From Longimicrobiales bacterium (GTDB lineage: Bacteria; Gemmatimonadota; Gemmatimonadetes; Longimicrobiales; Gaopeijiaceae): 64,000 bases of DNA. Shown piece after piece: positions 1,583 through 60,159 of this stretch. The notes under the pieces are model-generated. The model searched no databases. It was not told where the DNA came from and saw only the letters and a program-made list of their open reading frames with translations. Location: positions 96,001-160,000 of the forward strand of contig JAWLHJ010000005.1 in assembly GCA_041690395.1 (NCBI GenBank), read 5' to 3'. How positions within the stretch are numbered: the first letter of the stretch is position 1; each line of letters opens with the position of its first letter. Position numbers and translations under genes: made by a program.

Positions 1583-3145
1583 TCAATCGTGACGGGTGAG
1601 CCTGTCTTCCACCCGCCTCACGAGCTCAGTGACCTCGAAAGGCTTCGCGAGGAGGGCGTCTGGATCCCAGGCCAACCACTCGGAGATCTGGGGGACGTCC
1701 GCGAAGCCGGAGACGAAGAGCACGGAGGTGCCCGGCTGCTCGGATCGTATCCATCGGGCCAGCTCCGCCCCGTCCATGCCGGGCATCATCACGTCGGTGA
1801 TCACGACGTCGAACGGCGGCTGCGACCCACGAAAGATGCTCATGGCCGACGAAGCGCTCGGAGCAGCCACCACATCATAGCCTCGACGTTTCAGGGCGCG
1901 CTCCATCACGCGGCGTACAGGAGCCTCGTCGTCCACGACCAGGATCCGCGGCTCGCTTCCCCCCTTCGGACCGGGCACATGTCGACCGAGCTCCGGCGGA
2001 AGAGGGGTGGAGTCGCTCCGGTGCAGGGGTAGAAGGATCTTGACCAAGGTGCCGTGCGCAGGGGCGCTGATGACGCTCACGTGGCCTCGAGCCCTGAGCA
2101 CGTGGCCGTACACCGTGGTGAGACCCAGCCCCGCCCCTCGACCCAGGGGCTTCGTCGTGAAGAAGGGGTCGAAGACTCTCCTGCGCGTGTCGGCGTTCAT
2201 ACCGATGCCCGTGTCTCCCACGGCGATTGACACGTAGTCGCCGGGAGGGACAGGGGGATCGTAGTCCATGCCATCCGTATCCTCCGGAGCCGAAACGTTG
2301 GCGGTCTCCAGCACGATTCGGCCTCCTCCCGGCATGGCGTTCCGCGCGTTCTCGACCAGGCTCAATAGCACCTGGGTCATGCGTTCCTGATCGATGCGCA
2401 CGAGGCCCGCGTCCCGGTCGAGCCGCAATACGACGTCCACGCCCTGGCCGGCGATCATACGCAGCGTGCCCACGAGATCCGAGATCAGGTCGGTCAGGCT
2501 CAGCGTCTCGTCACACGACAGCTCCGACCTGCTGAAGACGAGGAGCCGCTCCGTGATCTCTCCGGCGCGTCGCGCGGCGTTCAGGATGTGGGATACGCCG
2601 TCCATCGCGTCGGTGTAATCGCCGGCGAGAAGTTCCTGGGCCTCGCCGATGATGGCCGCCAGCAGGTTGTTGTACTCGTGGGCGATCCCTCCCGCGAATC
2701 GGACCACCGCCTCCATCTTGTGGCTCTGGGTCGACCTCTCTCGATCTTCGCGGGCGCTGGTCACGTCGTCGGCGCTGAACACGACGACCGGTTGCTCCGA
2801 CCCCGGCAACGTCCTCAGGCGTCCTCGCACGCTCACGGTGACATCCATGCCGTCGGCTCGAACGATGTCCAGGTCGAGAGGCTCGCCGACTCCGTTCCCG
2901 AGACGCTCACGGATGACGTCCGCGGCGAGCTCCGGGGCCCGGTGGAACGAGGCCAGGGACATCCCTTCCGCGTCCTCCTCCCCGCGAAGTCCGAGGATTC
3001 CGGCGAGAGCTCGGTTCGCGCTGAGGAGCCTCCCATCCAGGCTCGCGACGCCGATCCCCACGGGTGCCTCTTCCAGCACCGTATCGGCACGCGGTGGGGT
3101 CACGTGGGTCAGAGTCGGGCTCATGAGTTCAGGCTGGAGAGGCAT
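1583..3145 (-). CDS. Hybrid sensor histidine kinase PAS-HisKA-HATPase-REC (CckA-type)
   Basis: H-box GGIAHEYNNLL, N-box LVENARNAM, DTGIGM, PFFTTK, GAGLGL; REC ILVVDDE...VITDVMMP...KPF. Start is 3145 or 3124, not the 3406 in the track. Confidence 0.9.
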   Translation of the reverse strand: MPLQPELMSPTLTHVTPPRADTVLEEAPVGIGVASLDGRLLSANRALAGILGLRGEEDAEGMSLASFHRAPELAADVIRERLGNGVGEPLDLDIVRADGMDVTVSVRGRLRTLPGSEQPVVVFSADDVTSAREDRERSTQSHKMEAVVRFAGGIAHEYNNLLAAIIGEAQELLAGDYTDAMDGVSHILNAARRAGEITERLLVFSRSELSCDETLSLTDLISDLVGTLRMIAGQGVDVVLRLDRDAGLVRIDQERMTQVLLSLVENARNAMPGGGRIVLETANVSAPEDTDGMDYDPPVPPGDYVSIAVGDTGIGMNADTRRRVFDPFFTTKPLGRGAGLGLTTVYGHVLRARGHVSVISAPAHGTLVKILLPLHRSDSTPLPPELGRHVPGPKGGSEPRILVVDDEAPVRRVMERALKRRGYDVVAAPSASSAMSIFRGSQPPFDVVITDVMMPGMDGAELARWIRSEQPGTSVLFVSGFADVPQISEWLAWDPDALLAKPFEVTELVRRVEDRLTRHD

Positions 3146-3272: not shown

Positions 3273-5126
3273 ATGACGTGGTTGCGAGCGCACTCTCGTC
3301 CCTCGGTTCGTCCGGTGCCATCTTCGTCCAGCACGCCCGTGTACTCATCTGAAGAGCTGTTCCTGGAATCCCCCGTGCCGACCTTGTTCCTCGGACGTGA
3401 CGGCACGATTCAGGACCTCAATCCCGCTGGGCGGCGCCTGCTCGGGACGTCCCGAGAGCGCATCCTCGGGCGCCCGATTCTGGGCTTCGTGGACGAGGAC
3501 GATCGGCCTCGAGTGCGTGAGTTCTTCCTTCGGGCGCTGAAGGGTCAGACCCGCGAGTGGACCACCCGCCTCCGGCGCGGCGACGGTACGGTGCGCGGAC
3601 AGTGGGTAAAGGCCCTCCCCTCCGTGTCGGGTGGCTCGGTCGCCGGGGCTCTCGTCTTCTGTCGGGACCTCACGGAGTCCGGGGTGGGAAGCCCCGACCG
3701 CGACCAACTCGGGAGCCTGCTCGAGAACCTCCCCGGTCAGTTCACGGCGGTGCTGGGGCCGGATGGAAGGATCCGCTATTCGGCGGGTCTGGCGAGGACC
3801 CACTTCCTTCAGGATACGGAGGCCGTGGGTGTCCCCTATGAGGATCTGCTTGGTGTCGACGATCCCGCGGCGTCGGTGGAAGGGATGTTGAGGGCGGTGT
3901 CGGAGAGCGGGCGTTGGAGTGAGATCCAGTGGCACGCTCGCGTCGACGGGAGCCGACTCCCGGTCAGGGTCTTCGCCTGTCCCTACCTCGATCCCGCGGA
4001 CGGACGTCACATCGGCGTTCTGCTCGCCGGACGTGACATCTCCAGTGAGATGAGCTGGAGGGAGCGTGCCGGGAAGGCCGCGTCTCTCGCAACTGTCGGC
4101 GAGATCTCTCAGAAGGCGGCCGAGGAGATTCGTTCGGGACTGACGATGCTGAAGAATGCCGGCTCCACACCGGACGGGTTCGCCGCCGTCATCGAGCGGA
4201 GCTGCGGCATCGCGGAGGCCATCGAGGAGCTCGCGGGCCTCCCCGTGGGCACGGAGGAAGTCGACCTCTACGACGTCGTGTCGGAAGTCGTCACGGCGCT
4301 CCGGGTTCGTGCCCCCGATACGGGGCCTTCCGTCAAGCTTCACGAGCGCTCCGGAGAGGGGCGCCTCGTAGCGCGGGCGAGCAGAGTGGCCGTGGCCCGG
4401 GCGATCGGGGAGCTGCTGTCCAATGCTCTCGAAGCCACCGCGGCGCTGTCGGGCCCCCCACCCGTCGACGTCTCGGTGGAAGTGTCGGCTCGCAAGGTGG
4501 TCGTCCGGGTGGTGAGCGACCTCTCCGACACGGACCGGGAGGAGCTTCATCGTGCGTTCGAGCCGTTCTTCACCACGAGAGCCGGTCACCTGGGCCTGGG
4601 CTTGAATTTCGTCCGAAGCGTGGCGGTCTCCCACGATGGGCGGGCATGGTCCGAGATCGATGAGGCGGGGCGGGCGGTGTTCGCCATCCAGCTCCCGCTC
4701 TTCGGGGACGGCGCCGCCGGTAGGTTCCGACCGGCTCCTATCTCGGTTTCGCGAGACAGGACTGTGCTCATCGTCGACGACGAGGAGTCCGTCCGCGTCG
4801 CGCTACGACGATTCCTCGGGAAGGTCGGCTTCGAGGTACGGGAGGCGTGGAGCGGCCGCAGCGCTCTCGCTCAGATCACGGCGGGCCGTCCGCCGGAGAT
4901 CCTCCTGACGGACATCCAGATGTCGGACGGAGCAGGGGACTGGCTGCTCGACCAGCTGGCGAGGGATTTCCCGGATCTCCTTCGGAAGACGTTGATCATC
5001 ACGGGCGCGCCCGATGCCCCCGCGGTTCTATCCCTCGCGCGTCGGACCGGTTGCACCGTCGTGCCCAAGCCCCTGGATCTGGCGGGTCTCCTGGAGCTGG
5101 TGGACGAGCTGGCGGTCCGGGACTAG
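3273..5126 (+). CDS. PAS-PAS-degenerate histidine kinase-REC (pseudo-kinase hybrid)
   Basis: Two PAS-like regions; H-box position reads QKAAEEIRSGL (no His); N-box LLSNALEA, FEPFFTT, GLGL; intact REC (VDDE, TDIQM, KPL). Confidence 0.8.
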   Translation: MTWLRAHSRPSVRPVPSSSSTPVYSSEELFLESPVPTLFLGRDGTIQDLNPAGRRLLGTSRERILGRPILGFVDEDDRPRVREFFLRALKGQTREWTTRLRRGDGTVRGQWVKALPSVSGGSVAGALVFCRDLTESGVGSPDRDQLGSLLENLPGQFTAVLGPDGRIRYSAGLARTHFLQDTEAVGVPYEDLLGVDDPAASVEGMLRAVSESGRWSEIQWHARVDGSRLPVRVFACPYLDPADGRHIGVLLAGRDISSEMSWRERAGKAASLATVGEISQKAAEEIRSGLTMLKNAGSTPDGFAAVIERSCGIAEAIEELAGLPVGTEEVDLYDVVSEVVTALRVRAPDTGPSVKLHERSGEGRLVARASRVAVARAIGELLSNALEATAALSGPPPVDVSVEVSARKVVVRVVSDLSDTDREELHRAFEPFFTTRAGHLGLGLNFVRSVAVSHDGRAWSEIDEAGRAVFAIQLPLFGDGAAGRFRPAPISVSRDRTVLIVDDEESVRVALRRFLGKVGFEVREAWSGRSALAQITAGRPPEILLTDIQMSDGAGDWLLDQLARDFPDLLRKTLIITGAPDAPAVLSLARRTGCTVVPKPLDLAGLLELVDELAVRD

Positions 5127-16070: not shown

Positions 16071-17453
16071 ATGGCGACCATCCTGTGTGTCGACGATGAG
16101 CCTGCGGCGGCTTCCGTATTGAAGGACGCCCTCGAGCAGTGCGGACACGACGCCGTAGCCGTCCACAACGTGGCCGCCGCCATGAAGGTGCTGTCGAGAT
16201 CCGGGATCGACCTCATCGTGTCCGATTACCGCATGCCGGAGGCGAACGGGTTGGAGTTCCTGGAGGAGCTCCGCAGGGAGGGGCTGGACATCCCGCTGGT
16301 CATGGTCACGGGACACGCTTCCATCGAGCACGCCGTGGCGGCCATCAAGGCCGGAGCGGTGGACTACATCACGAAGCCGATCCGTCCACAGCAGCTCGAG
16401 ATCGCGGTCGACCAAGCTCTGGAGTTCACCCGCCTGAAGCGTGAGAACGCGCAACTCCGGGAGGAGCTGACCCAGATGCGGTCGGCACGGGAGATCATCG
16501 CCGAAAGCGAGTCGTTACGGCGTATTCTCGAGACGATCCGCGTGGTGGCGCCGACACGCGCGACCGTCCTCCTCCAGGGCGAGTCGGGCACGGGTAAGGA
16601 GCTTCTCGCGCGAACCGTCCATAACATGAGCGATCGCTCCGAGGGGCCCTTCATTGCGATCAACTGCGCGGCCATCCCCGAGAACCTGGTGGAGAGCACG
16701 CTGTTCGGCCATGAGAAGGGGGCGTTCACGGGCGCCGTGAAGCAGGTGAAAGGTGCGTTCGAGCGGGCACACCGTGGCACCCTCCTGCTCGACGAAGTGT
16801 CCGAGATGCGGATGGATCTGCAGGCGAAGCTCTTACGCGTGCTCCAGGAACAGGAGTTCGAAAGGGTGGGCGGCACCCAGCCCATCTCCGTCGACGTGCG
16901 CATCGTGGCGACGACGAACCGGGACCTGGCGGAGCACGCCAGGGAAGGAAACTTCAGAGAAGATCTCTATTATCGGCTCAGCGTCGTGCCTCTCCTGGTC
17001 CCGCCATTGCGCGAGCGCCTCGAAGACATTCCGGCGCTCGTGCACCATTTCGCGGCGAGCACGGCCGCCGACGTCGGAAGGACCATCACCGCCGTGTCGC
17101 CCGAGACCATCGATCTGCTGAGCCAGTACGAATGGCCGGGGAACGTGCGCGAGCTCTCGCACGCGGTGGAGCGGGCCGTCATCCTGTCCACGGGCGACAC
17201 CCTCGAACCGAGGGCGTTCGACCCCGCGCGATTCGGTCTGACACCGGGTCGTGGGCAGGGACCGGTCCTCGGTGGCGACACGTCCGCCGGCGGGGGCGCT
17301 GCAGGCGATCTGGATACGCTCAATATCGCGGAGGTCGAGGAGATCCTGATCCAGAGAGCGCTCGAAGCAACCGGGAACAACCGCACGAAGGCCGCCGATC
17401 TCCTCGGGGTTTCCGTGCGCACGCTGCGAAACAAGCTGAACAAGCCTTCCTGA
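16071..17453 (+). CDS. Sigma54-dependent enhancer-binding response regulator (REC-AAA+-Fis HTH), probable flagellar class-II activator
   Basis: REC; GESGTGKE; GAFTGA intact; LLDEV; FREDLYYRL; WPGNVREL; C-terminal HTH; lies directly upstream of flgB. Confidence 0.93.
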   Translation: MATILCVDDEPAAASVLKDALEQCGHDAVAVHNVAAAMKVLSRSGIDLIVSDYRMPEANGLEFLEELRREGLDIPLVMVTGHASIEHAVAAIKAGAVDYITKPIRPQQLEIAVDQALEFTRLKRENAQLREELTQMRSAREIIAESESLRRILETIRVVAPTRATVLLQGESGTGKELLARTVHNMSDRSEGPFIAINCAAIPENLVESTLFGHEKGAFTGAVKQVKGAFERAHRGTLLLDEVSEMRMDLQAKLLRVLQEQEFERVGGTQPISVDVRIVATTNRDLAEHAREGNFREDLYYRLSVVPLLVPPLRERLEDIPALVHHFAASTAADVGRTITAVSPETIDLLSQYEWPGNVRELSHAVERAVILSTGDTLEPRAFDPARFGLTPGRGQGPVLGGDTSAGGGAAGDLDTLNIAEVEEILIQRALEATGNNRTKAADLLGVSVRTLRNKLNKPS

Positions 17454-17740: not shown

Positions 17741-17756
17741 TGGCCCGCCGCTTGCT
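17741..17756 (+). promoter_or_regulatory. Sigma54 -24/-12 promoter of the flgB operon
   Basis: TGGCCCG-CCGC-TTGCT versus consensus TGGCACG-N4-TTGCW. Confidence 0.8.
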
Positions 17757-38776: not shown

Positions 38777-39535
38777 ATGGAACACACGACTACCGGGTGG
38801 GACGCGGCTCAGAGCGGGACGGACGTCGCTGCGCGTGACGATCTGATCTCACGGCACATGAGGCTGGTGCATCACGTCGCGCGGCAGGTGATGCGATCCA
38901 CAAGCGCGGACGTCGACCTGGACGAGCTCGTCAGCGCTGGAGCCGTTGGGCTCATGAAGGCCATTGAGAACTTCGATCCTTCGCGGGGCCTCGCGTTCAG
39001 CACGTATGCCGCGCCCAGAATTCGGGGCTCGGTGCTCGACGATCTGCGAAGGAGAGATCACGCACCCCGATCGATCCGGAAGAAGCAGCGCGACATCTCG
39101 CGCGCCACGGAGAAGCTGCAGGCGGAGCTGGGGCGCGCTCCGTCGCCGGACGAAGTGGCGAACGAGCTCGGAATCGACGTGACCAAGCTGTGGAAGTGGG
39201 AGCGAGAAACTGAGTATGCGGGGCGGGTGTCCATCGATGCCACCGTCGACTCCGGGTATGGTCGCGCCATGGCCCCGAAGGACGTGCTCGCCGGTGACGA
39301 CGAAGTGAGCGTCGAGGAGGAGATCACTCGGAAAGAAGAAGTGGCGTTCCTGCGTGACGAGATCCTCAACCTGAAGGAACAGGAGCGCCTCGTGCTCTCC
39401 CTGTACTACTTCGAGGAGCTCAAGCTCCATGAGATCGCTTCCATTCTCGGCGTCACCGAATCGCGGATCTCACAGATCAGGTCGCAGGCGGTCGCGAACC
39501 TGCGTGGGCGCCTGGGTCATCTTCGGGAGGACTGA
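38777..39535 (+). CDS. fliA: RNA polymerase sigma-28 factor FliA
   Basis: DELVSAGAVGL..FDPSRG..FSTYA.PRIRGSVLDDLR; LYYFEELKLHEIASILGVTESRISQI. Confidence 0.95.
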   Translation: MEHTTTGWDAAQSGTDVAARDDLISRHMRLVHHVARQVMRSTSADVDLDELVSAGAVGLMKAIENFDPSRGLAFSTYAAPRIRGSVLDDLRRRDHAPRSIRKKQRDISRATEKLQAELGRAPSPDEVANELGIDVTKLWKWERETEYAGRVSIDATVDSGYGRAMAPKDVLAGDDEVSVEEEITRKEEVAFLRDEILNLKEQERLVLSLYYFEELKLHEIASILGVTESRISQIRSQAVANLRGRLGHLRED

Positions 39536-39538
39536 GCC

Positions 39539-40108
39539 ATGAGCCTCCGCCCGACGGTGTTCCTGATGCGGCCCTTCGCCGAGGGTGTCGCGAATGAGCA
39601 GGCCCGTGCCCTCGCTCTCGAGTCGGTACCCGTGGCGCCCACGGAGTTACAGCCCTCTCAGTATGTGGCGGCCCAGGTGCGACGGATCCTGAGAGGAGAA
39701 GGCGACGCGTCGGTCTGGGCCCGCTTGCACGAGGCGCTGGCCGAAGTCGGGAGTGGCTCGGCTTCGTTGTCGCTCCCGTCTGCCGTTCCCACGACCGGTG
39801 CGTCGCCTGCGCCCGGCGATTGGGTCGCGTTCGCTGGGAGGTGGATGGAGTCGTCCCTGAGCTCGGCCTACGCACCCTATGCGCTCGCCCTCGCGGCCGC
39901 GTGCGTTCTCGTCCTCGCTTTCGCCTTCATCACCAGACGTCGGCAAGGCCGAATGTCGCCGCCGGAGGCTGTGGCCTCCGGGAATCTCGACCGTAGAGGC
40001 CAGGTCCGCGCCCTGGCGGCCACCGGCGTTCCCGTCGCCGATATCGCCCGCCGAATGGGCTTGTCCCGGGAAGCCGTCGTCGTCCTGACGCGGGTGCGCA
40101 CGTCGTGA
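39539..40108 (+). CDS. Membrane protein with C-terminal HTH-like motif (SwrB/YlxL-like by architecture and position)
   Basis: TM ALALAAACVLVLAFAFI; C-terminal VRALAATGVPVADIARRMGLSREAV; directly after fliA. Confidence 0.6.
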   Translation: MSLRPTVFLMRPFAEGVANEQARALALESVPVAPTELQPSQYVAAQVRRILRGEGDASVWARLHEALAEVGSGSASLSLPSAVPTTGASPAPGDWVAFAGRWMESSLSSAYAPYALALAAACVLVLAFAFITRRRQGRMSPPEAVASGNLDRRGQVRALAATGVPVADIARRMGLSREAVVVLTRVRTS

Positions 40109-46373: not shown

Positions 46374-46646
46374 ATGCTGATCCTGAGTCGCAAGCCTGGC
46401 GACGCCGTGCTGATCGACGGTGGCATTCGCATTGTCGTCCTGTCGACGGACGGAGGAGGCGTGCGCCTGGGTATCGAGGCGCCGGCGTCCGTCGGCATCG
46501 TGCGGGAAGAGATCGCTCGGGATATCGCCGAAGAGAACGTACGGGCCGGAGCAACGCCCGAGACGCGCGCATGGCTCGAGGCGTTGGGCTCGGACCCCGC
46601 TGAACCGGCGGAGGTCACGGACGCGGACTCCGCCGACGAAGTGTGA
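46374..46646 (+). CDS. csrA: Translational regulator CsrA
   Basis: MLILSRKPGDAVLIDGGIRIVVL...VRLGIEAP...REEI..EN, with C-terminal extension typical of FliW-regulated CsrA. Confidence 0.92.
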   Translation: MLILSRKPGDAVLIDGGIRIVVLSTDGGGVRLGIEAPASVGIVREEIARDIAEENVRAGATPETRAWLEALGSDPAEPAEVTDADSADEV

Positions 46647-46731: not shown

Positions 46732-47370
46732 TTACTTCGAGGCGCGGGACACCTCGAGGGACGGGAAGGAGACCGTCGCGCCGTCTGCCGTCACCGAACA
46801 CGAGCCCGCATCCATGGCGAAGACCGCCGACAGGGCGGCGGTCCATGGGCCCGGGGGCACGGGCGCCACGGAGGGGATGTCGATGTGGGCCGCCTTCGCG
46901 TCACCGCGGACCACCACGGGCCTGTCCAGTCGGTCCCAGTCGCCTCCCAGACGATCGATGAGGAGCGCCATGGCCCGGACGGTCCTGCCTGCTCCCACCA
47001 GGACTGCCGGCGTCCCGTCCGCGACCGAAACGCGAGGCGGACGGACATAACCCTTGTCGCGCGCCTTCGCGTGCATGCTGAGCGCCTCGGCCACGAGGTC
47101 CTGAGGTAGCCGGGCTTCCGCACCGGCCTCCGGATTCGCGGGAATGAGCTGAAGCAATCGGGCGAGTTGCTCCAGCTTCGCGGTCTCGTCCTGGAATGCC
47201 TCCGGTACGGGCTCCCCGAGCTGCATGAGCTGTGTCACCGCCATGAGCGAGCTGACGCGGCTGTTCAGATCGTGACACACGCCCCGGATGATCCTGTCGA
47301 CGAGCGCGCTCCAGCCGGCGCTTTCCAGGAGCGAGCCTGCGGTCGTGGGAGGATAGTCGTCCGTTGTCAC
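46732..47370 (-). CDS. ChpT-like histidine phosphotransferase (DHp with His + degenerate CA domain)
   Basis: 212 aa from a GTG start with GGAG upstream; IRGVCHDLNSRVSSL H-box; C-terminal half lacks N/G1/G2 boxes. Confidence 0.65.
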   Translation of the reverse strand: MTTDDYPPTTAGSLLESAGWSALVDRIIRGVCHDLNSRVSSLMAVTQLMQLGEPVPEAFQDETAKLEQLARLLQLIPANPEAGAEARLPQDLVAEALSMHAKARDKGYVRPPRVSVADGTPAVLVGAGRTVRAMALLIDRLGGDWDRLDRPVVVRGDAKAAHIDIPSVAPVPPGPWTAALSAVFAMDAGSCSVTADGATVSFPSLEVSRASK

Positions 47371-47377
47371 TCGTCGC

Positions 47378-47404
47378 TCCAGTTCACACGCGGGCTGTCG
47401 ATAC
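47378..47404 (+). promoter_or_regulatory. Putative sigma28 promoter of motAB
   Basis: TCCA(GTT)-N15-GTCGATAC. Confidence 0.5.
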
Positions 47405-47495: not shown

Positions 47496-48356
47496 GTGTC
47501 TGTGTTCATTGGTCTCGGGGTCGTCTTCGGGAGCATCATCGTCGGATATACGATGCACCATGGCGAGCTCGCGATTCTCATACAGGTCAGCGAGTTCATC
47601 ATCATCGGCGGCGCCGCGTTCGGTGCCGTGATCGTGGGTAATCCACCCTCGACGGTGAAAGCGATGTTCGCGGAGACGATCGGTCTCCTCAAGCCCGATC
47701 CGTACGGCAAGGCGACGTTCCGGGACCTACTCCAGGTCCTGTACGACATCTTCTACCAGGCCCGAAGGGACGGGCTCGTCGGCGTCGAAGCGCATGTGGA
47801 GAAGCCCTTCGAGAGCGAGCTCTTCAAGCAATATCCGAGCTTTCGGGACAACCACCACGCCGTGTCTTTCCTCGCCGACACCATGAAGGTGTTGCTCACC
47901 GGTGCCGTCGAGGACCATCACCTGTCGGAGATCCTCGATCTGGATCTCGAGCAGCACCACCACGAGGCGATGGTCGTGCCCACGCGGTTGCAGGCCGTCG
48001 CCGACGCCATGCCCGGCTTCGGTATCGTCGCCGCGGTGCTCGGGGTGATCATCACCATGGGTAAGATCGGTGGATCACCGGAGGTGATCGGGAAGAGCGT
48101 CGCCGCCGCGTTGGTCGGGACCTTCCTCGGCATCCTTCTGGCGTACGGTGTGGTCGGCCCCATCGCCCAGGCCGTCGAGAACCGGGTGGTGGCACAGGAG
48201 CGCTATCTCGGCTGCATTCGTACGGCCTTGCTGTCCTTCGCGCGCGGGGACCCCCCGATCACCTCGGTGGAGTTCGCCCGCCGGAACATCGAGCCGGCGG
48301 ATCGCCCCTCGTTCGAGGAGCTCGAAGAGATGACGCGTAAGCGAGGGAAGGGGTAG
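47496..48356 (+). CDS. motA: Stator protein MotA
   Basis: EFIIIGGAA; ARRDGLVGVE; MPGFGIVAAVLG; ALVGTFLGILLAYG. Confidence 0.95.
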   Translation: MSVFIGLGVVFGSIIVGYTMHHGELAILIQVSEFIIIGGAAFGAVIVGNPPSTVKAMFAETIGLLKPDPYGKATFRDLLQVLYDIFYQARRDGLVGVEAHVEKPFESELFKQYPSFRDNHHAVSFLADTMKVLLTGAVEDHHLSEILDLDLEQHHHEAMVVPTRLQAVADAMPGFGIVAAVLGVIITMGKIGGSPEVIGKSVAAALVGTFLGILLAYGVVGPIAQAVENRVVAQERYLGCIRTALLSFARGDPPITSVEFARRNIEPADRPSFEELEEMTRKRGKG

Positions 48357-48359
48357 AGC

Positions 48360-49208
48360 GTGGCCGACAAGAAAATCGTCTTCGTGAAGAAGAAGATTAA
48401 GGCGAAACACGGGCACCATGGCGGATCCTGGAAGGTGGCCTACGCCGATTTCGTGACCGCGATGATGGCGTTCTTCCTCGTGATGTGGATCATGAACATG
48501 GATCAGGGCGTGCGGGACCTGGTGCAGGGCTACTTCGAGAATCCGGTGGGCTTCAAGCGCAGCTACTCGGGTGGGCGAAACATCCTGTCCCAGGGGAATT
48601 CCATCATGAACATGGAGGTACGGCGGCAGCTCATCCTGAAGCGTCGTGAAGCGGAGGAAGGCAGGTTCCGGGAAGTCGCGGCGGAGATCGAGCGGCGCCT
48701 CGTGGGAAGCGAGTCCGGCACGCCAGAGGAGCTCGGGGTCGAAGTCGTCGTCGCGGACGATGGTCTGCGTATCGAAATGATGGAACCCAACCAGGGGGCC
48801 TCGTTCTTCGATGTCGCATCATCCAATCCTACCAGAGAGCTCGAGCAGGTTCTCCGCGTCGTGGCTGCGGAGCTCGCGGACCTGGACAATGGCGTCGTGG
48901 TCGAGGGTCACACCGACGCGACACCGTTCGGCAGCGCTGGGTATTCGAACTGGGAGCTCTCGGTGGATCGGGCGAACGCGGCGCGCCGGGTGCTGCTGTC
49001 CGGTGGGCTGTCCCCGGAGCGTCTGGTCGAGGTCCGCGGCTATGCCGATCGGCGGCTCAAGTTCGTCGATTCACCTTCGGATCGCCGAAATCGTCGCGTC
49101 ACGGTGCTGATTCCGTTCGATACCCCCGGTATGGGGGATTTCGAGGGGTGGGAGTGGTCGGAGTCGGGGGACGGGGCCGAGATCGACTCGGGGAGTGCCG
49201 ACTCGTGA
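48360..49208 (+). CDS. motB: Stator protein MotB
   Basis: HGGSWKVAYADFVTAMMAFFLVMW; OmpA-like GHTDA..NWELS..RA; NRRV. Confidence 0.96.
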   Translation: MADKKIVFVKKKIKAKHGHHGGSWKVAYADFVTAMMAFFLVMWIMNMDQGVRDLVQGYFENPVGFKRSYSGGRNILSQGNSIMNMEVRRQLILKRREAEEGRFREVAAEIERRLVGSESGTPEELGVEVVVADDGLRIEMMEPNQGASFFDVASSNPTRELEQVLRVVAAELADLDNGVVVEGHTDATPFGSAGYSNWELSVDRANAARRVLLSGGLSPERLVEVRGYADRRLKFVDSPSDRRNRRVTVLIPFDTPGMGDFEGWEWSESGDGAEIDSGSADS

Positions 49209-51037
49209 GCCCGGGAGGAACGCGTTTCGACTTCCGGTGGCTCGTCCGCGTGTTCGCGGATAAGCTGGCCGAGCTCTCCGGGTCGGACAGCGTATCGGCG
49301 GCCGTGCGGCGCGCCCAGGGGGCACGCCCTGACATCCTGCTGGCGCGCGGCCCCGTCTTTCAGCGGACCGAAGTCGTGGAGGAGACGTTTTCCTTCCTGA
49401 CCCACGACCTCCTACGGTCGGTAGGGCCGCTTCGCGTGCCGGGCGACCGGCTGCCCAGGAGCCTGATGACGTTGAGGGCGGCGCTCGCCCGGTCGGGAGT
49501 GCCCGACCTCGCGGCCTTTCCCATCAGGGGTGAGGGGGAGCTGGCCGGTTGTGTCATGGCGCCGTGTGAAGGTGGATCGGCCGTGTTGGAAGATTCCGGG
49601 CCGTGGGCGGCATGCGAGTCGGCGGTATGGACGGTCAGGCTGGGCGCGGCGACGGCTGCCCTCGACGCGTTGGCCGGACGACCGGCGAGGGGCGGGGTGA
49701 TCGCCGACGTCGATGGTGTCATGACCCTCGACACGAGTGGGCGCATCCTGATGGCGCGTGGACTCTGCAGGGACATTCTGACAAGAGCCGCGGCCCCGCC
49801 GCTCGGCGCTCGTATGGAGGATCTTCTCGGCGGCGAGTCGGCGTCGACCATGTTGGCCTCCGAGGAGGCCGAGGTCGTGTGGAGCGAACACCTGTTGCCG
49901 GCCTCGGCGAGCGGGGGGCTCGCCGTCGCCATGGTCCCCGATTCGAGGGGGAGCGCTCATCGGCTCGGTCACCGTGTGGTCTGCGTGCGGGATCTGCGCA
50001 CCGACCCCGGACGGCGAGGGATCGGCCTGCGCTTCGAGCTTGTCGCCGAGGTCGCCTGGGCGCTCGACGCGTTGGGTGCGGTAGACTCGCCCGGCCAAGC
50101 CCCGCTTGCCGACCTGGTGACCGAGGCCTCTCGGCTCCTGGAAGCGGCGGCCCCGTCCGTCTCGCACCCGGGCGTCACGAGCGGTGACGAGTTGAACGAC
50201 ATCGTCCGAGCGTGCTTGCATGCCGTGGACCGGGCGCTCGCCGCGGAACGGATCCGCGTGTTCAGCTTGCTGCAGCCCGAGCTTCCGCCCGCAGCTATCG
50301 ATTCGGTCTCGCTCTACAGGGCACTGCGCCGACTCATCGACCGCGCTCGGGCCTCGCTAGGGGGAAGAGGGGGGTCTCTGACGCTCAAGACGGGTAAGGT
50401 GGACGACCAGCCTTACGTTACGGTCTCGGATGACGGCGCGGGCCGGCTCGCGAACGACGGCGGAGACAACATCGGCCTGCCGCTCTTCCGGCTCGCCGAG
50501 CCGAGCTCGGAGACCGACACCATCGAGGTGCGTGCCTTTCTCGAGCGGATCGGAGCGAAGCTGCTGTTGGAGAGCCGGCCGGGTCTGTGGACCCGATCCA
50601 CCGTGCTGCTTCGGGCCGTGCCCGCTCGGACACTTCCCGAAGAGAGGCCGAGAGGGGGCACGCCGGATGCGGGGGGACCCACTGTTCTGTCCGTGCTCGT
50701 CGTGGACGACAACCCTGCGCTGAGGAGCGTGCTTCGCCGCTACCTGGAGCGTCGGGGGCACGAGGTGACCGAGGCGTCCGACGGAAACGAAGGACTGACT
50801 GCCGTGGCCCAGAAGGACTTCGATCGACTGATCGTGGATGTCCACATGCCCGGGAAGGGAGGCCCGGAGTTCTACGAGGGGTTGGGCGTGTCCGCGCCCC
50901 AGCTGCGGCCGCGTACGATCTTCATGACCGGCGGATACGTGGAGAGCGCCATCGAGCGCTTCATCGTCGAGTCCGGGCGGCCTGCCCTCTCGAAGCCCTT
51001 CGACCTCGAAGAGCTCGCCCGGGCCGTCGAGGCCTGA
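49205..51037 (+). CDS. Degenerate sensor kinase-like protein with C-terminal REC (pseudo-kinase hybrid)
   Basis: GTGA overlap with motB; PAS-like DGVMTLDTSGRIL; H-box position VAEVAWAL; residual DDGAG; intact REC VLVVDDN..VDVHMP..MTG..KPF. Confidence 0.75.
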   Translation: MSPGGTRFDFRWLVRVFADKLAELSGSDSVSAAVRRAQGARPDILLARGPVFQRTEVVEETFSFLTHDLLRSVGPLRVPGDRLPRSLMTLRAALARSGVPDLAAFPIRGEGELAGCVMAPCEGGSAVLEDSGPWAACESAVWTVRLGAATAALDALAGRPARGGVIADVDGVMTLDTSGRILMARGLCRDILTRAAAPPLGARMEDLLGGESASTMLASEEAEVVWSEHLLPASASGGLAVAMVPDSRGSAHRLGHRVVCVRDLRTDPGRRGIGLRFELVAEVAWALDALGAVDSPGQAPLADLVTEASRLLEAAAPSVSHPGVTSGDELNDIVRACLHAVDRALAAERIRVFSLLQPELPPAAIDSVSLYRALRRLIDRARASLGGRGGSLTLKTGKVDDQPYVTVSDDGAGRLANDGGDNIGLPLFRLAEPSSETDTIEVRAFLERIGAKLLLESRPGLWTRSTVLLRAVPARTLPEERPRGGTPDAGGPTVLSVLVVDDNPALRSVLRRYLERRGHEVTEASDGNEGLTAVAQKDFDRLIVDVHMPGKGGPEFYEGLGVSAPQLRPRTIFMTGGYVESAIERFIVESGRPALSKPFDLEELARAVEA

Positions 51038-59041: not shown

Positions 59042-59419
59042 ATGAAGTTTCTGGTCGTCGACGACTCCGCCACCATGCGCAGGATCGTCGTGAACTCCTT
59101 GAAACGCATCGGCTACGACGAATGCGTCGAGGCCGACGACGGCTCTGCCGGGCTCGCGGCGTTCGATACCTCGGTGGATTTCGTCATCACCGACTGGAAC
59201 ATGCCGAACATGAGCGGACTGGACTTCGTCAAGGCGATTCGCGCTAGGGATGACGGGAAGGCCGTGCCCATCCTGATGGTCACAACGCGAAGCGTGAAGG
59301 AAGACATCGTTCTCGCCGCACAGGCGGGCGTGAACAACTACGTCGTCAAGCCGTTCACGCCCCAGGTGTTGAAGGAAAAGATCGACCAGGCCCTAGGGGC
59401 CGTCGCGGGGAGCGCCTGA
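59042..59419 (+). CDS. cheY: Chemotaxis response regulator CheY (CheY2)
   Basis: MKFLVVDDSATMRRIV...ITDWNMPNMSG...LMVT...GVNNYVVKPFT (enteric-like CheY). Confidence 0.92.
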   Translation: MKFLVVDDSATMRRIVVNSLKRIGYDECVEADDGSAGLAAFDTSVDFVITDWNMPNMSGLDFVKAIRARDDGKAVPILMVTTRSVKEDIVLAAQAGVNNYVVKPFTPQVLKEKIDQALGAVAGSA

Positions 59420-60159
59420 TGTCGGCACCCGCCGATCGGCCCGGGTTGGCGCTCCACGATTCGGAGGCCACGCTGCGTCAGGTGGAGTCCGCCCTGGACG
59501 AGTTCAGCGGGACCGACGGCCGTCTGAGCTTCGAAGAGATCGTGACGGATCCGGACGGTCCCCCGGCGGGGCTCCACGACCTGGTCAAGCTGCTCATCGG
59601 GACCTACACGGAGATCATGGCCGTCATCGAGAGCCTGCGGCAGAGTCGTGGCCTCCTCGAACAGGCGGCGATGGATCGACTGAAGAGCACCCACGAGAAG
59701 CTCGCCGAGGTATCGTCCGCCACGGAGCTGGCGGCCGCCGGCATCTTGGACGGCCTCGACCGTGCGCTCGGCCTCGTGGACGAGCTCTCGTCGGACGAGG
59801 CCGGCGGCTCGGCCTCGTCCGATGGCTCGGACCCCGGCGCACGGCGCAGCGAGACCGCAGACACGCTGCGCGACGAGCTGCATCAGATCATGAATCTGCT
59901 TCAGTTCCAGGATATCACGTCCCAGCAGCTCGGTTATGCCTCCGGGGTCCTCATGGACATCGAAGAGCGCATGATGAGGCTGGTACGCGTCTTCGACCTC
60001 CAGAAGATGGGGATGGACGAGCTTCGGGGGGTCCTGGAGGAACGAGGTCCGGTGGCGGGACCCCGGACCCAGGATCCGGAGACGTGCGATCCCGACGCGT
60101 CGACACTGGGGGCCGATGAGCGGCAGGCGCTCGCCGACGAGGTCTTCACCTCGTCGTGA
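59419..60159 (+). CDS. cheZ: CheZ-like CheY-P phosphatase
   Basis: ATELAAAGILD...IMNLLQFQDITSQQL (DxxxQ motif); C-terminal QALADEVF; coupled to cheY. Confidence 0.78.
   Translation: MSAPADRPGLALHDSEATLRQVESALDEFSGTDGRLSFEEIVTDPDGPPAGLHDLVKLLIGTYTEIMAVIESLRQSRGLLEQAAMDRLKSTHEKLAEVSSATELAAAGILDGLDRALGLVDELSSDEAGGSASSDGSDPGARRSETADTLRDELHQIMNLLQFQDITSQQLGYASGVLMDIEERMMRLVRVFDLQKMGMDELRGVLEERGPVAGPRTQDPETCDPDASTLGADERQALADEVFTSS

Follow-up and report, generated by a model that had tools for sequence, protein, structure and literature searches.

The 64,000-nucleotide stretch of a Longimicrobiales genome analysed here (the window) carries in its flagellar cluster a stand-alone pseudo-histidine kinase, called X in the following, which keeps an invariant histidine and has lost the motifs for binding ATP. 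In the best reading, to which I give an even chance, X is a phosphotransferase that feeds the flagellar sigma-54 activator; if this is combined with the reading of X as a phosphatase or sink, a His-dependent partnership of X with that activator is probable. The wider proposal is tentative and stands slightly on the doubtful side, namely that a ChpT-like phosphotransferase arose separately in Gemmatimonadota out of the sensorless kinase cognate to the flagellar sigma-54 activator, that a sister family still has the ATP-competent form in this gene slot, and that the activator-FliA-X module outlives the flagellum with another output. X and its surroundings comprise the following features:

46732..47370, minus strand: gene X, a stand-alone pseudo-histidine kinase of 212 aa with a DHp and an ATP-dead CA-like domain (from the ORF, profiles and model)
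47377..47380, minus strand: GGAG ribosome-binding site, 6 nt 5' of the X GTG
47272..47274, minus strand: codon of His33, the invariant predicted phospho-acceptor, with a nearly invariant Arg at H+5
47146..47313, minus strand: DHp helical hairpin of X, residues 20-75 (from model secondary structure and alignment to kinase cores)
46738..47118, minus strand: CA-like (Bergerat) domain of X without N-box Asn, G1, F and G2, and with the ATP lid deleted
46374..46646, plus strand: csrA (Pfam CsrA), convergent with X, which marks the conserved gene slot
47502..49208, plus strand: motA and motB, divergent from X
47378..47404, plus strand: sigma-28-like motAB promoter, overlapping the X ribosome-binding site on the opposite strand

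The start codon of X is GTG and its GC content by codon position (0.72/0.52/0.83) follows a normal coding pattern; IIRGVCHDLNSRVSSL, the H-box stretch that holds His33, starts at residue 27. The locus reads flgK-csrA-X(reverse)-motA-motB within a full flagellar and chemotaxis cluster, in which the names of structural genes without a Pfam call are presumed. The motAB promoter is one that I take to be sigma-28, and a -10-like motif ahead of motA was found in 57 of 76 MotA-picked loci against 1.6 expected. The first-pass annotation had described a 212-aa ORF with an H-box, without a sensor domain, N-box Asn or glycine boxes, convergent with csrA and divergent from motAB, and this description holds throughout: the frame is real, His33 could be placed in it, the model consists of two DHp helices and an alpha/beta domain solely, no N-box Asn, G1, F or G2 remains, and both orientations were borne out. 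Elsewhere in the region, a CheZ-like protein at 59419-60159 (Pfam CheZ 29.7 bits, cut-off 30.7) adjoins a CheY-like receiver, and just past the window (G000:C5:165390-167103) the cluster is followed by another motA/motB-like pair, of a different type.

X is a real gene and no chance ORF, since a full-library profile search with X returned 231 cluster representatives at E<=0.001; the 152 representatives examined were 96-338 aa long, with a median of about 221 aa. His33 was the sole invariant column of a 130-row alignment, in which Trp20, Arg38, Glu62 and Pro203 each exceeded 90%. Poor conservation of the His among homologues had been named at the outset as a result that would speak against the annotation, but it was kept in 106/106 distinct genome-derived copies and in 149/152 representatives, the remaining 3 being gaps, a count that is partly circular in that both sets were found by a profile containing the His. 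Among 287 aligned entries (the 152 representatives and 135 genome-derived entries, some of them duplicated), no N-box column had more than 7 Asn, a G2-like string was found in 0/287, and a DxGxG string lay somewhere beyond residue 100, regardless of alignment position, in 20/287. The lid region was deleted relative to kinases in profile and alignment comparisons.

Around the histidine, position H+1 was mostly non-acidic in the 106 genome-derived copies (Ala 36, Asp 20, Gln 13, Thr 12), and H+5 was Arg in 95 and Pro in none of them. Position H+4 was Asn in 82/106 genome-derived copies and 51/152 representatives, Gly in 82/152 representatives, and Ser in window X, within whose clade it was Ser or Gly. 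X therefore lacks what marks an active HisKA kinase (N, G1, F and G2 boxes, acidic H+1), and its sequence and model show three traits of a DHp-type pseudo-kinase phosphotransferase: a DHp with a CA-like fold, a conserved His and absent ATP motifs. Overall identity among homologues was low (25-35%), with long branches in the tree. Their source annotations read "hypothetical protein" or gave no name, and the nearest Atlas clusters of two homologues had no common Pfam family. The Atlas matches of homologue P0012 were look-alike unnamed clusters, in which the phylum label found most often is Myxococcota or Acidobacteriota; the range of the family may exceed Gemmatimonadota. Single-sequence Pfam, NCBIfam and PDB searches with window X gave nothing meaningful, and a word-index homologue search gave just 4 proteins; a scan of 7998 scored candidates for longer fused forms found none at E<=1e-10, though the evidence from this is weak.

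The AlphaFold model of X (pLDDT 95.6) combines a DHp hairpin (helices 20-50 and 57-75) with a Bergerat-type alpha/beta domain, and matches whole kinase cores with Z 13.3 and an rmsd of 3.6 over 180 residues. In the Foldseek comparison with ChpT that the first-pass annotation had proposed, ChpT (4fpp) was matched at E 6.6e-5, at rank 21, after ordinary kinases. ChpT was absent among the 50 entries listed in a VIA fold comparison, which is no argument against fold kinship.

Whether X belongs to the ChpT family itself was addressed with models, profiles and trees. The annotation's "ChpT analogue or homologue" is upheld for its former half, as X is supported as an analogue in kind by size, architecture, invariant His, absent ATP motifs and stand-alone state; the latter, in the sense of family membership, is not supported. 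A search with ChpT family models, of the kind proposed in that annotation, did not place X in the family: window X had no match to PF10090, NF046018 or NF046025, 1/130 family members matched PF10090 (E 0.022) and 4/130 weakly matched NF046025 (best E 3e-4), whereas control ChpTs scored 110-130 bits on PF10090. Across 101 genomes of the phylum, PF10090 gave weak partial matches alone, in long open frames. For comparison, 67 ChpT-type proteins were gathered from metagenomes, and of 3 that were scanned 2 lay above the NCBIfam ChpT cut-off and 1 at 229 of 240. HHalign gave X a probability of 5.3% against ChpT and of 99.3%, over the full length, against the kinases that occupy the X slot in the sister family f4. 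A ChpT profile gave X at most 3.6 bits versus 28 for ordinary kinases, the X profile gave ChpT at most 13.8 bits versus 93.8 for f4 kinases, and in a further comparison the X profile gave ZraS 67 bits (9jfj, E 2e-17) and ChpT 17.9 bits; the AtoS model was matched by 38/130 family members. Judged by these sequence comparisons, X is not a ChpT family member.

The trees were less uniform. A quick all-column tree (110 rows) joined X and ChpT with SH-aLRT 95, plausibly via long branches and the shared loss of ATP motifs, while without the ATP-motif columns X grouped with the f4 kinases (87/83) and ChpT with CckA-like kinases (95/82); the 45-row tree comprised 14/35 X, 6/10 f4, 5/10 ChpT and 20/55 kinase rows, with six long-branch kinases omitted. 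Separate origins of X and ChpT are favoured by the sequence evidence, with an X+ChpT clade not rejected by the AU test (p=0.315). It is highly improbable that X is a true, very divergent ChpT that shares one kinase-to-transferase origin with the alphaproteobacterial family. Besides the all-column tree, the AU test and the weak NF046025 matches, a similar size and H-box look relative to the ChpT consensus would fit such descent; the HHalign and ChpT-profile results, the opposite placements once ATP-motif columns are removed, and the H+5 Pro, present in 10/10 ChpT rows and 0/106 X copies, where Arg takes its place, speak against it.

A different ancestry is suggested by family f4. Here, the csrA-adjacent gene encodes a sensorless kinase core of 220-263 aa that adjoins a REC-HD protein and was detected in 15/18 f4 stretches, f4 being the one family surveyed for such slot kinases. 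In 10/10 aligned sequences N-box Asn, DxG, Phe and GxG were invariant, the His was present in 8/10, the best family was AtoS, and none of the f4 genomes had an X-profile match above 95 bits. In three non-flagellated f4 genomes the intact slot kinase directly adjoins the activator, and two of these have no FliA match. The same slot in complementary states, intact in f4 and devoid of ATP motifs in X, suggests that X is an ATP-dead descendant of a sensorless AtoS/ZraS-type (FlgS/FlrB-like flagellar) kinase. Two f4 slot kinases, L087:4567-5238 and L101:6114-6902, retain all ATP motifs but no longer possess the His, which is the reverse of the state seen in X. The receiver of the REC-HD neighbour seems degenerate in some genomes.

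Comparative genomics points to the sigma-54 activator as the likely acceptor of phosphate from X, a role for which the first-pass annotation had put forward no particular protein. The features relevant here are:

16071..17453, plus strand: sigma-54 activator (REC-AAA-HTH) with intact Asp52, predicted to regulate the flagellar genes and proposed as the partner of X
17741..17755, plus strand: sigma-54 -24/-12-like site, 62 nt 5' of a flgB-like ORF
38777..39535, plus strand: FliA-like sigma factor, which non-flagellated genomes retain alongside X and the activator

X was divergent from motA in 59 of 71 Gemmatimonadota loci, which were picked by MotA and not by X and had at least 900 nt upstream. 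For 13 MotA-picked loci without X in this position (two of them duplicates of phylum-sample genomes), 10 genomes bear X elsewhere. Among 129 genomes of the families f1, f2, f3 and f5, 49 have X and 40 have FliG, and one set of 53 has both the activator orthologue and FliA; a score of roughly 78 bits was the threshold for calling X, with G145 added as confirmed by its locus, a degenerate copy in G336 uncounted, and eleven calls made by score alone. As many as 48/49 X genomes have the activator orthologue, and among the 89 genomes without FliG, X occurred in 11/13 with the activator versus 1/76 without it. Twelve X genomes are without FliG, and 11 of these retain both activator and FliA; leaving out G210, an unpublished genome, the counts become 47/48 X genomes with the activator and 11 instead of 12 without FliG. 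The 129 genomes are mutually related, and co-occurrence is given as counts with no significance claimed. Because the distributions of activator and FliA are identical over the 129 genomes, co-occurrence cannot tell the two apart as partners of X. The pattern has exceptions: G343 (L043 / L381) holds an intact-looking X next to an unrelated receiver-containing frame, with no match for an activator orthologue, FliA or FliG, and five genomes have the activator and no clear X. In the flagellated family f10, X is not clearly present and there is only a more distant activator.

Gene order adds to this picture. In the window about 21 kb separate the activator from fliA and about 7 kb separate fliA from X, whereas the three are usually neighbours in non-flagellated genomes. 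A compact activator-fliA-X cassette without structural flagellar genes was seen in L044-L052, L056 and L320 (non-flagellated, or a second copy in G070); such cassettes often include flgM and sometimes csrA or fliS. All 8 relocated X copies examined adjoin a fliA, with the activator in the same stretch for only 1 of the 8. Among 11 X remnants, none had a sigma-54 site before fliA and 1 had a CheY-like gene in its stretch. The small ORF that follows fliA in the window (39539-40108) shows near its C terminus a weak helix-turn-helix signal that stays under the Pfam cut-offs.

The activator itself kept Asp52 in 41/42 copies from X-positive genomes. Both genomes of genus g80, G107 (L351) and G285 (L353), the former or the latter of which has lost X while the other has it, show Glu in place of Asp52, a possible constitutive form. 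The match of the activator's docking surface to the X-positive consensus fell from a median of 0.84 (42 copies) to 0.445 in X-negative genomes (6 copies from 5 genomes, phylogenetically non-independent), compared with 0.84 and 0.805 for the AAA domain; the rest of REC also fell, from 0.82 to 0.645, and several X-positive copies scored as low (0.32-0.53) on the docking surface. A complex prediction of an X dimer with the activator REC scored 0.53 versus 0.00 for the best control, with runs agreeing in at least 94% of contacts and a partner pLDDT of at least 79. In the benchmark of this score, the mark was reached by 116/157 solved and 2/215 mismatched pairs, and at 0.60 or below by just 18 solved pairs and both mismatches; the predicted complex thus lends slight support, and its score may show likeness to solved kinase-receiver complexes only. 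As to the output, the genome encodes sigma-54, and the promoter before flgB is presumably of the sigma-54 type: the pattern is at chance level in the window alone (2 found, 2.3 expected), and an exact TGGC-N7-TTGC lies 51-64 nt ahead of flgB in 9/30 flagellated relatives versus 0.33 expected.

Two hybrid kinases of the window were considered as sources of phosphate:

49148..51037, plus strand: pseudo hybrid kinase-REC without H-box His or N-box Asn, with an intact REC in which the Asp and a FATGUY-like motif are kept; start uncertain
1583..3145, minus strand: intact PAS-HisKA-HATPase-REC hybrid kinase, one of many candidate donors

The hybrid at 49148-51037, in which Trp replaces the H-box His, has orthologues in five related loci of one clade, 3' of motB, all of them without H-box His and N-box Asn. 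Lacking both residues, it cannot start a relay by autophosphorylation, and the first-pass proposal that a hybrid kinase of the window is the relay source is not sustained for it. FATGUY is described as a mark of intermediate receivers in the part of PMC9981736 drawn on here, and by its sequence this protein may be a relay station (intermediate receiver) but is no primary kinase. No conserved donor kinase was found near X loci: the hybrids there fall into several unrelated groups and none of these hybrids has the 1583-3145 kinase as its best match, and in most X loci no hybrid lies nearby. Only 3 Hpt domains are encoded in the genome, compared with 17 high-scoring kinases that end in a REC. The donor is probably one or more CckA-like hybrid kinases, and this is the weakest step of the proposal. 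A third kinase-like protein in an odd state lies in the cluster at 3339-5126, a PAS-rich hybrid kinase-REC whose H-box region is degenerate but which has an N-box and a G2-like motif.

In the proposed mechanism, X would be a histidine phosphotransferase that acts as a dimer, with His33 taking phosphate from a donor kinase's receiver domain and handing it to Asp52 of the activator, which is predicted to switch on the flagellar genes. When the ancestor of X lost its ATP site, a phosphorelay would have replaced the two-component pair. The phosphotransferase reading is favoured because the His was kept while the H+1 acid drifted and the ATP motifs disappeared, because the model matches whole kinase cores, and because Hpt domains are so few beside kinases with a C-terminal REC. 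For the activator as partner speak its co-occurrence with X, above all without FliG, the shrinkage of non-flagellated clusters to activator-fliA-X, and the less conserved docking surface where X is missing; descent from a kinase partner is argued by the ATP-competent f4 slot kinases and their position beside the activator. The reading is weakened by the lack of a donor that travels with X and by the dead neighbouring hybrid, by relocated copies that keep fliA and mostly not the activator, by the frequent H+4 Asn, and by G343 and the five activator genomes without a clear X. Both the activator as acceptor and the direction from donor to activator are what I infer from this evidence.

The main rival accepts the same partner: X would be a negative regulator of the activator, as a dedicated phosphatase, phosphate sink or sequestering partner, and another kinase or a small-molecule donor would phosphorylate the activator. 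According to the section of PMC3510030 relied on here, HisKA proteins need the H+1 acid for autokinase activity and use Thr or Asn at H+4 as phosphatase residue, and the pattern in X, with H+1 drifted and H+4 often Asn, is that of a phosphatase-biased HisKA protein. No donor co-travels with X, all partner evidence is compatible with either direction, and phosphorelay steps are often reversible (in an excerpt of PMC5231405); moreover, PhyT was first termed a phosphatase and later shown to be a His-dependent transferase and inhibitor, being both phosphotransferase and negative regulator (as summarised in a portion of PMC5898713). Against such a role, the H+4 motif is not universal, with Ser in window X and Gly in over half of the representatives, while the His is invariant, and X is the sole slot protein, no other cognate kinase having been seen beside the activator. 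I consider this rival unlikely, albeit a serious contender. It is quite unlikely that X is instead one part of a split kinase, in which a CA domain of another kinase phosphorylates the His in trans, or that its DHp forms heterodimers that tune another kinase, in either case with no Asp-to-His relay. The DHp of X is intact with its His, and the hybrid at 49148-51037 and 2/10 f4 slot kinases show the mirror loss of the His with CA elements kept, but this hybrid is also without the N-box Asn, and its orthologues occur in just 5 other loci of one clade, X being far more widespread.

The identical distributions of FliA and activator, and the relocated copies that adjoin fliA, often with flgM, would suit an X that targets the FliA/FlgM arm, the CsrA arm or CheY, for instance by binding, its His being vestigial. 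Such a target is very unlikely: FliA, FlgM and CsrA have no receiver domain, yet the His of X is invariant; the adjacency of X and fliA results from deletion of the intervening genes from the ancestral order; the two f4 remnants without a FliA match hold activator and slot kinase; and a CheY-like gene is as rare in X remnants as noted above. Low identity and long branches might finally indicate a kinase remnant that is decaying or has no function, or else an atypical kinase in which ATP use persists. This is barely credible given open frames, the invariant His, the class-wide conservation of Trp20, Arg38, Glu62 and Pro203, the retention of X after flagellum loss and relocation, and the absence of nucleotide-binding residues and a lid.

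Described families of DHp-type phosphotransferases are few (ChpT, Spo0B, PhyT), each bound to one lineage, and the kind of mechanism, DHp-type phosphotransfer, is already known. If the proposal is true, X adds an unnamed phosphotransferase family that spans a class and is the first with a link to the sigma-54 flagellar checkpoint, which elsewhere is run by ATP-driven kinases such as FlgS. The f4 kinase and X, in the same slot and with the same activator, would then form a living before-and-after series from two-component pair to phosphorelay, and since an ATP-competent relative occupies this slot beside the same activator, direct comparison could probe how a kinase became a phosphotransferase. 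The model of X and activator would also be the first regulatory model for motility in Gemmatimonadota, a widespread and little-studied phylum that includes cultured flagellated members (per a passage of PMC10581226). A search of open-access text, supplements aside, found no description of the X family and no text pairing a Gemmatimonad with ChpT.

Among known systems, X resembles ChpT of Caulobacter (4FPP/4FMT) and Brucella, likewise a stand-alone protein of about 210 aa with DHp and CA-like domains, a conserved His and no ATP site (from the part of PMC3433190 consulted). The two differ in that extra helical turns fill the ATP pocket of ChpT whereas the lid is deleted in X, in their partners (CtrA/CpdR for ChpT, which receives the phosphate from CckA, and by prediction the sigma-54 activator for X) and phylum, in H+5 (Pro in ChpT, Arg in X), and in the lack of a ChpT family-model match for X. 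Spo0B of Bacillus and PhyT of Sphingomonas are also DHp-type proteins that relay between receivers in a His-dependent manner, and ChpT, Spo0B and PhyT all arose from degenerate histidine kinases (again in the portion of PMC5898713 cited). X had no sequence match to Spo0B or PhyT in PDB or family searches; unlike X, PhyT is membrane-anchored, has an HRxxN motif and serves the general stress response, and Spo0B acts in sporulation. The best sequence relatives of X are the AtoS/ZraS/NtrB-type HisKA kinases, ZraS foremost, from which X differs by lacking the sensor, the N, G1, F and G2 boxes, the H+5 Pro and a conserved H+1 acid. The f4 slot kinase and activator resemble FlgS-FlgR of Helicobacter and Campylobacter, a soluble kinase with an NtrC-type activator of sigma-54 flagellar genes (in the excerpt used of PMC3930126), and FlrB-FlrC of Vibrio and FleS-FleR of Pseudomonas are described as similar pairs for sigma-54 flagellar genes. 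FlgS, FlrB and FleS autophosphorylate with ATP, for which X has no motifs, and they are likened to X by role.
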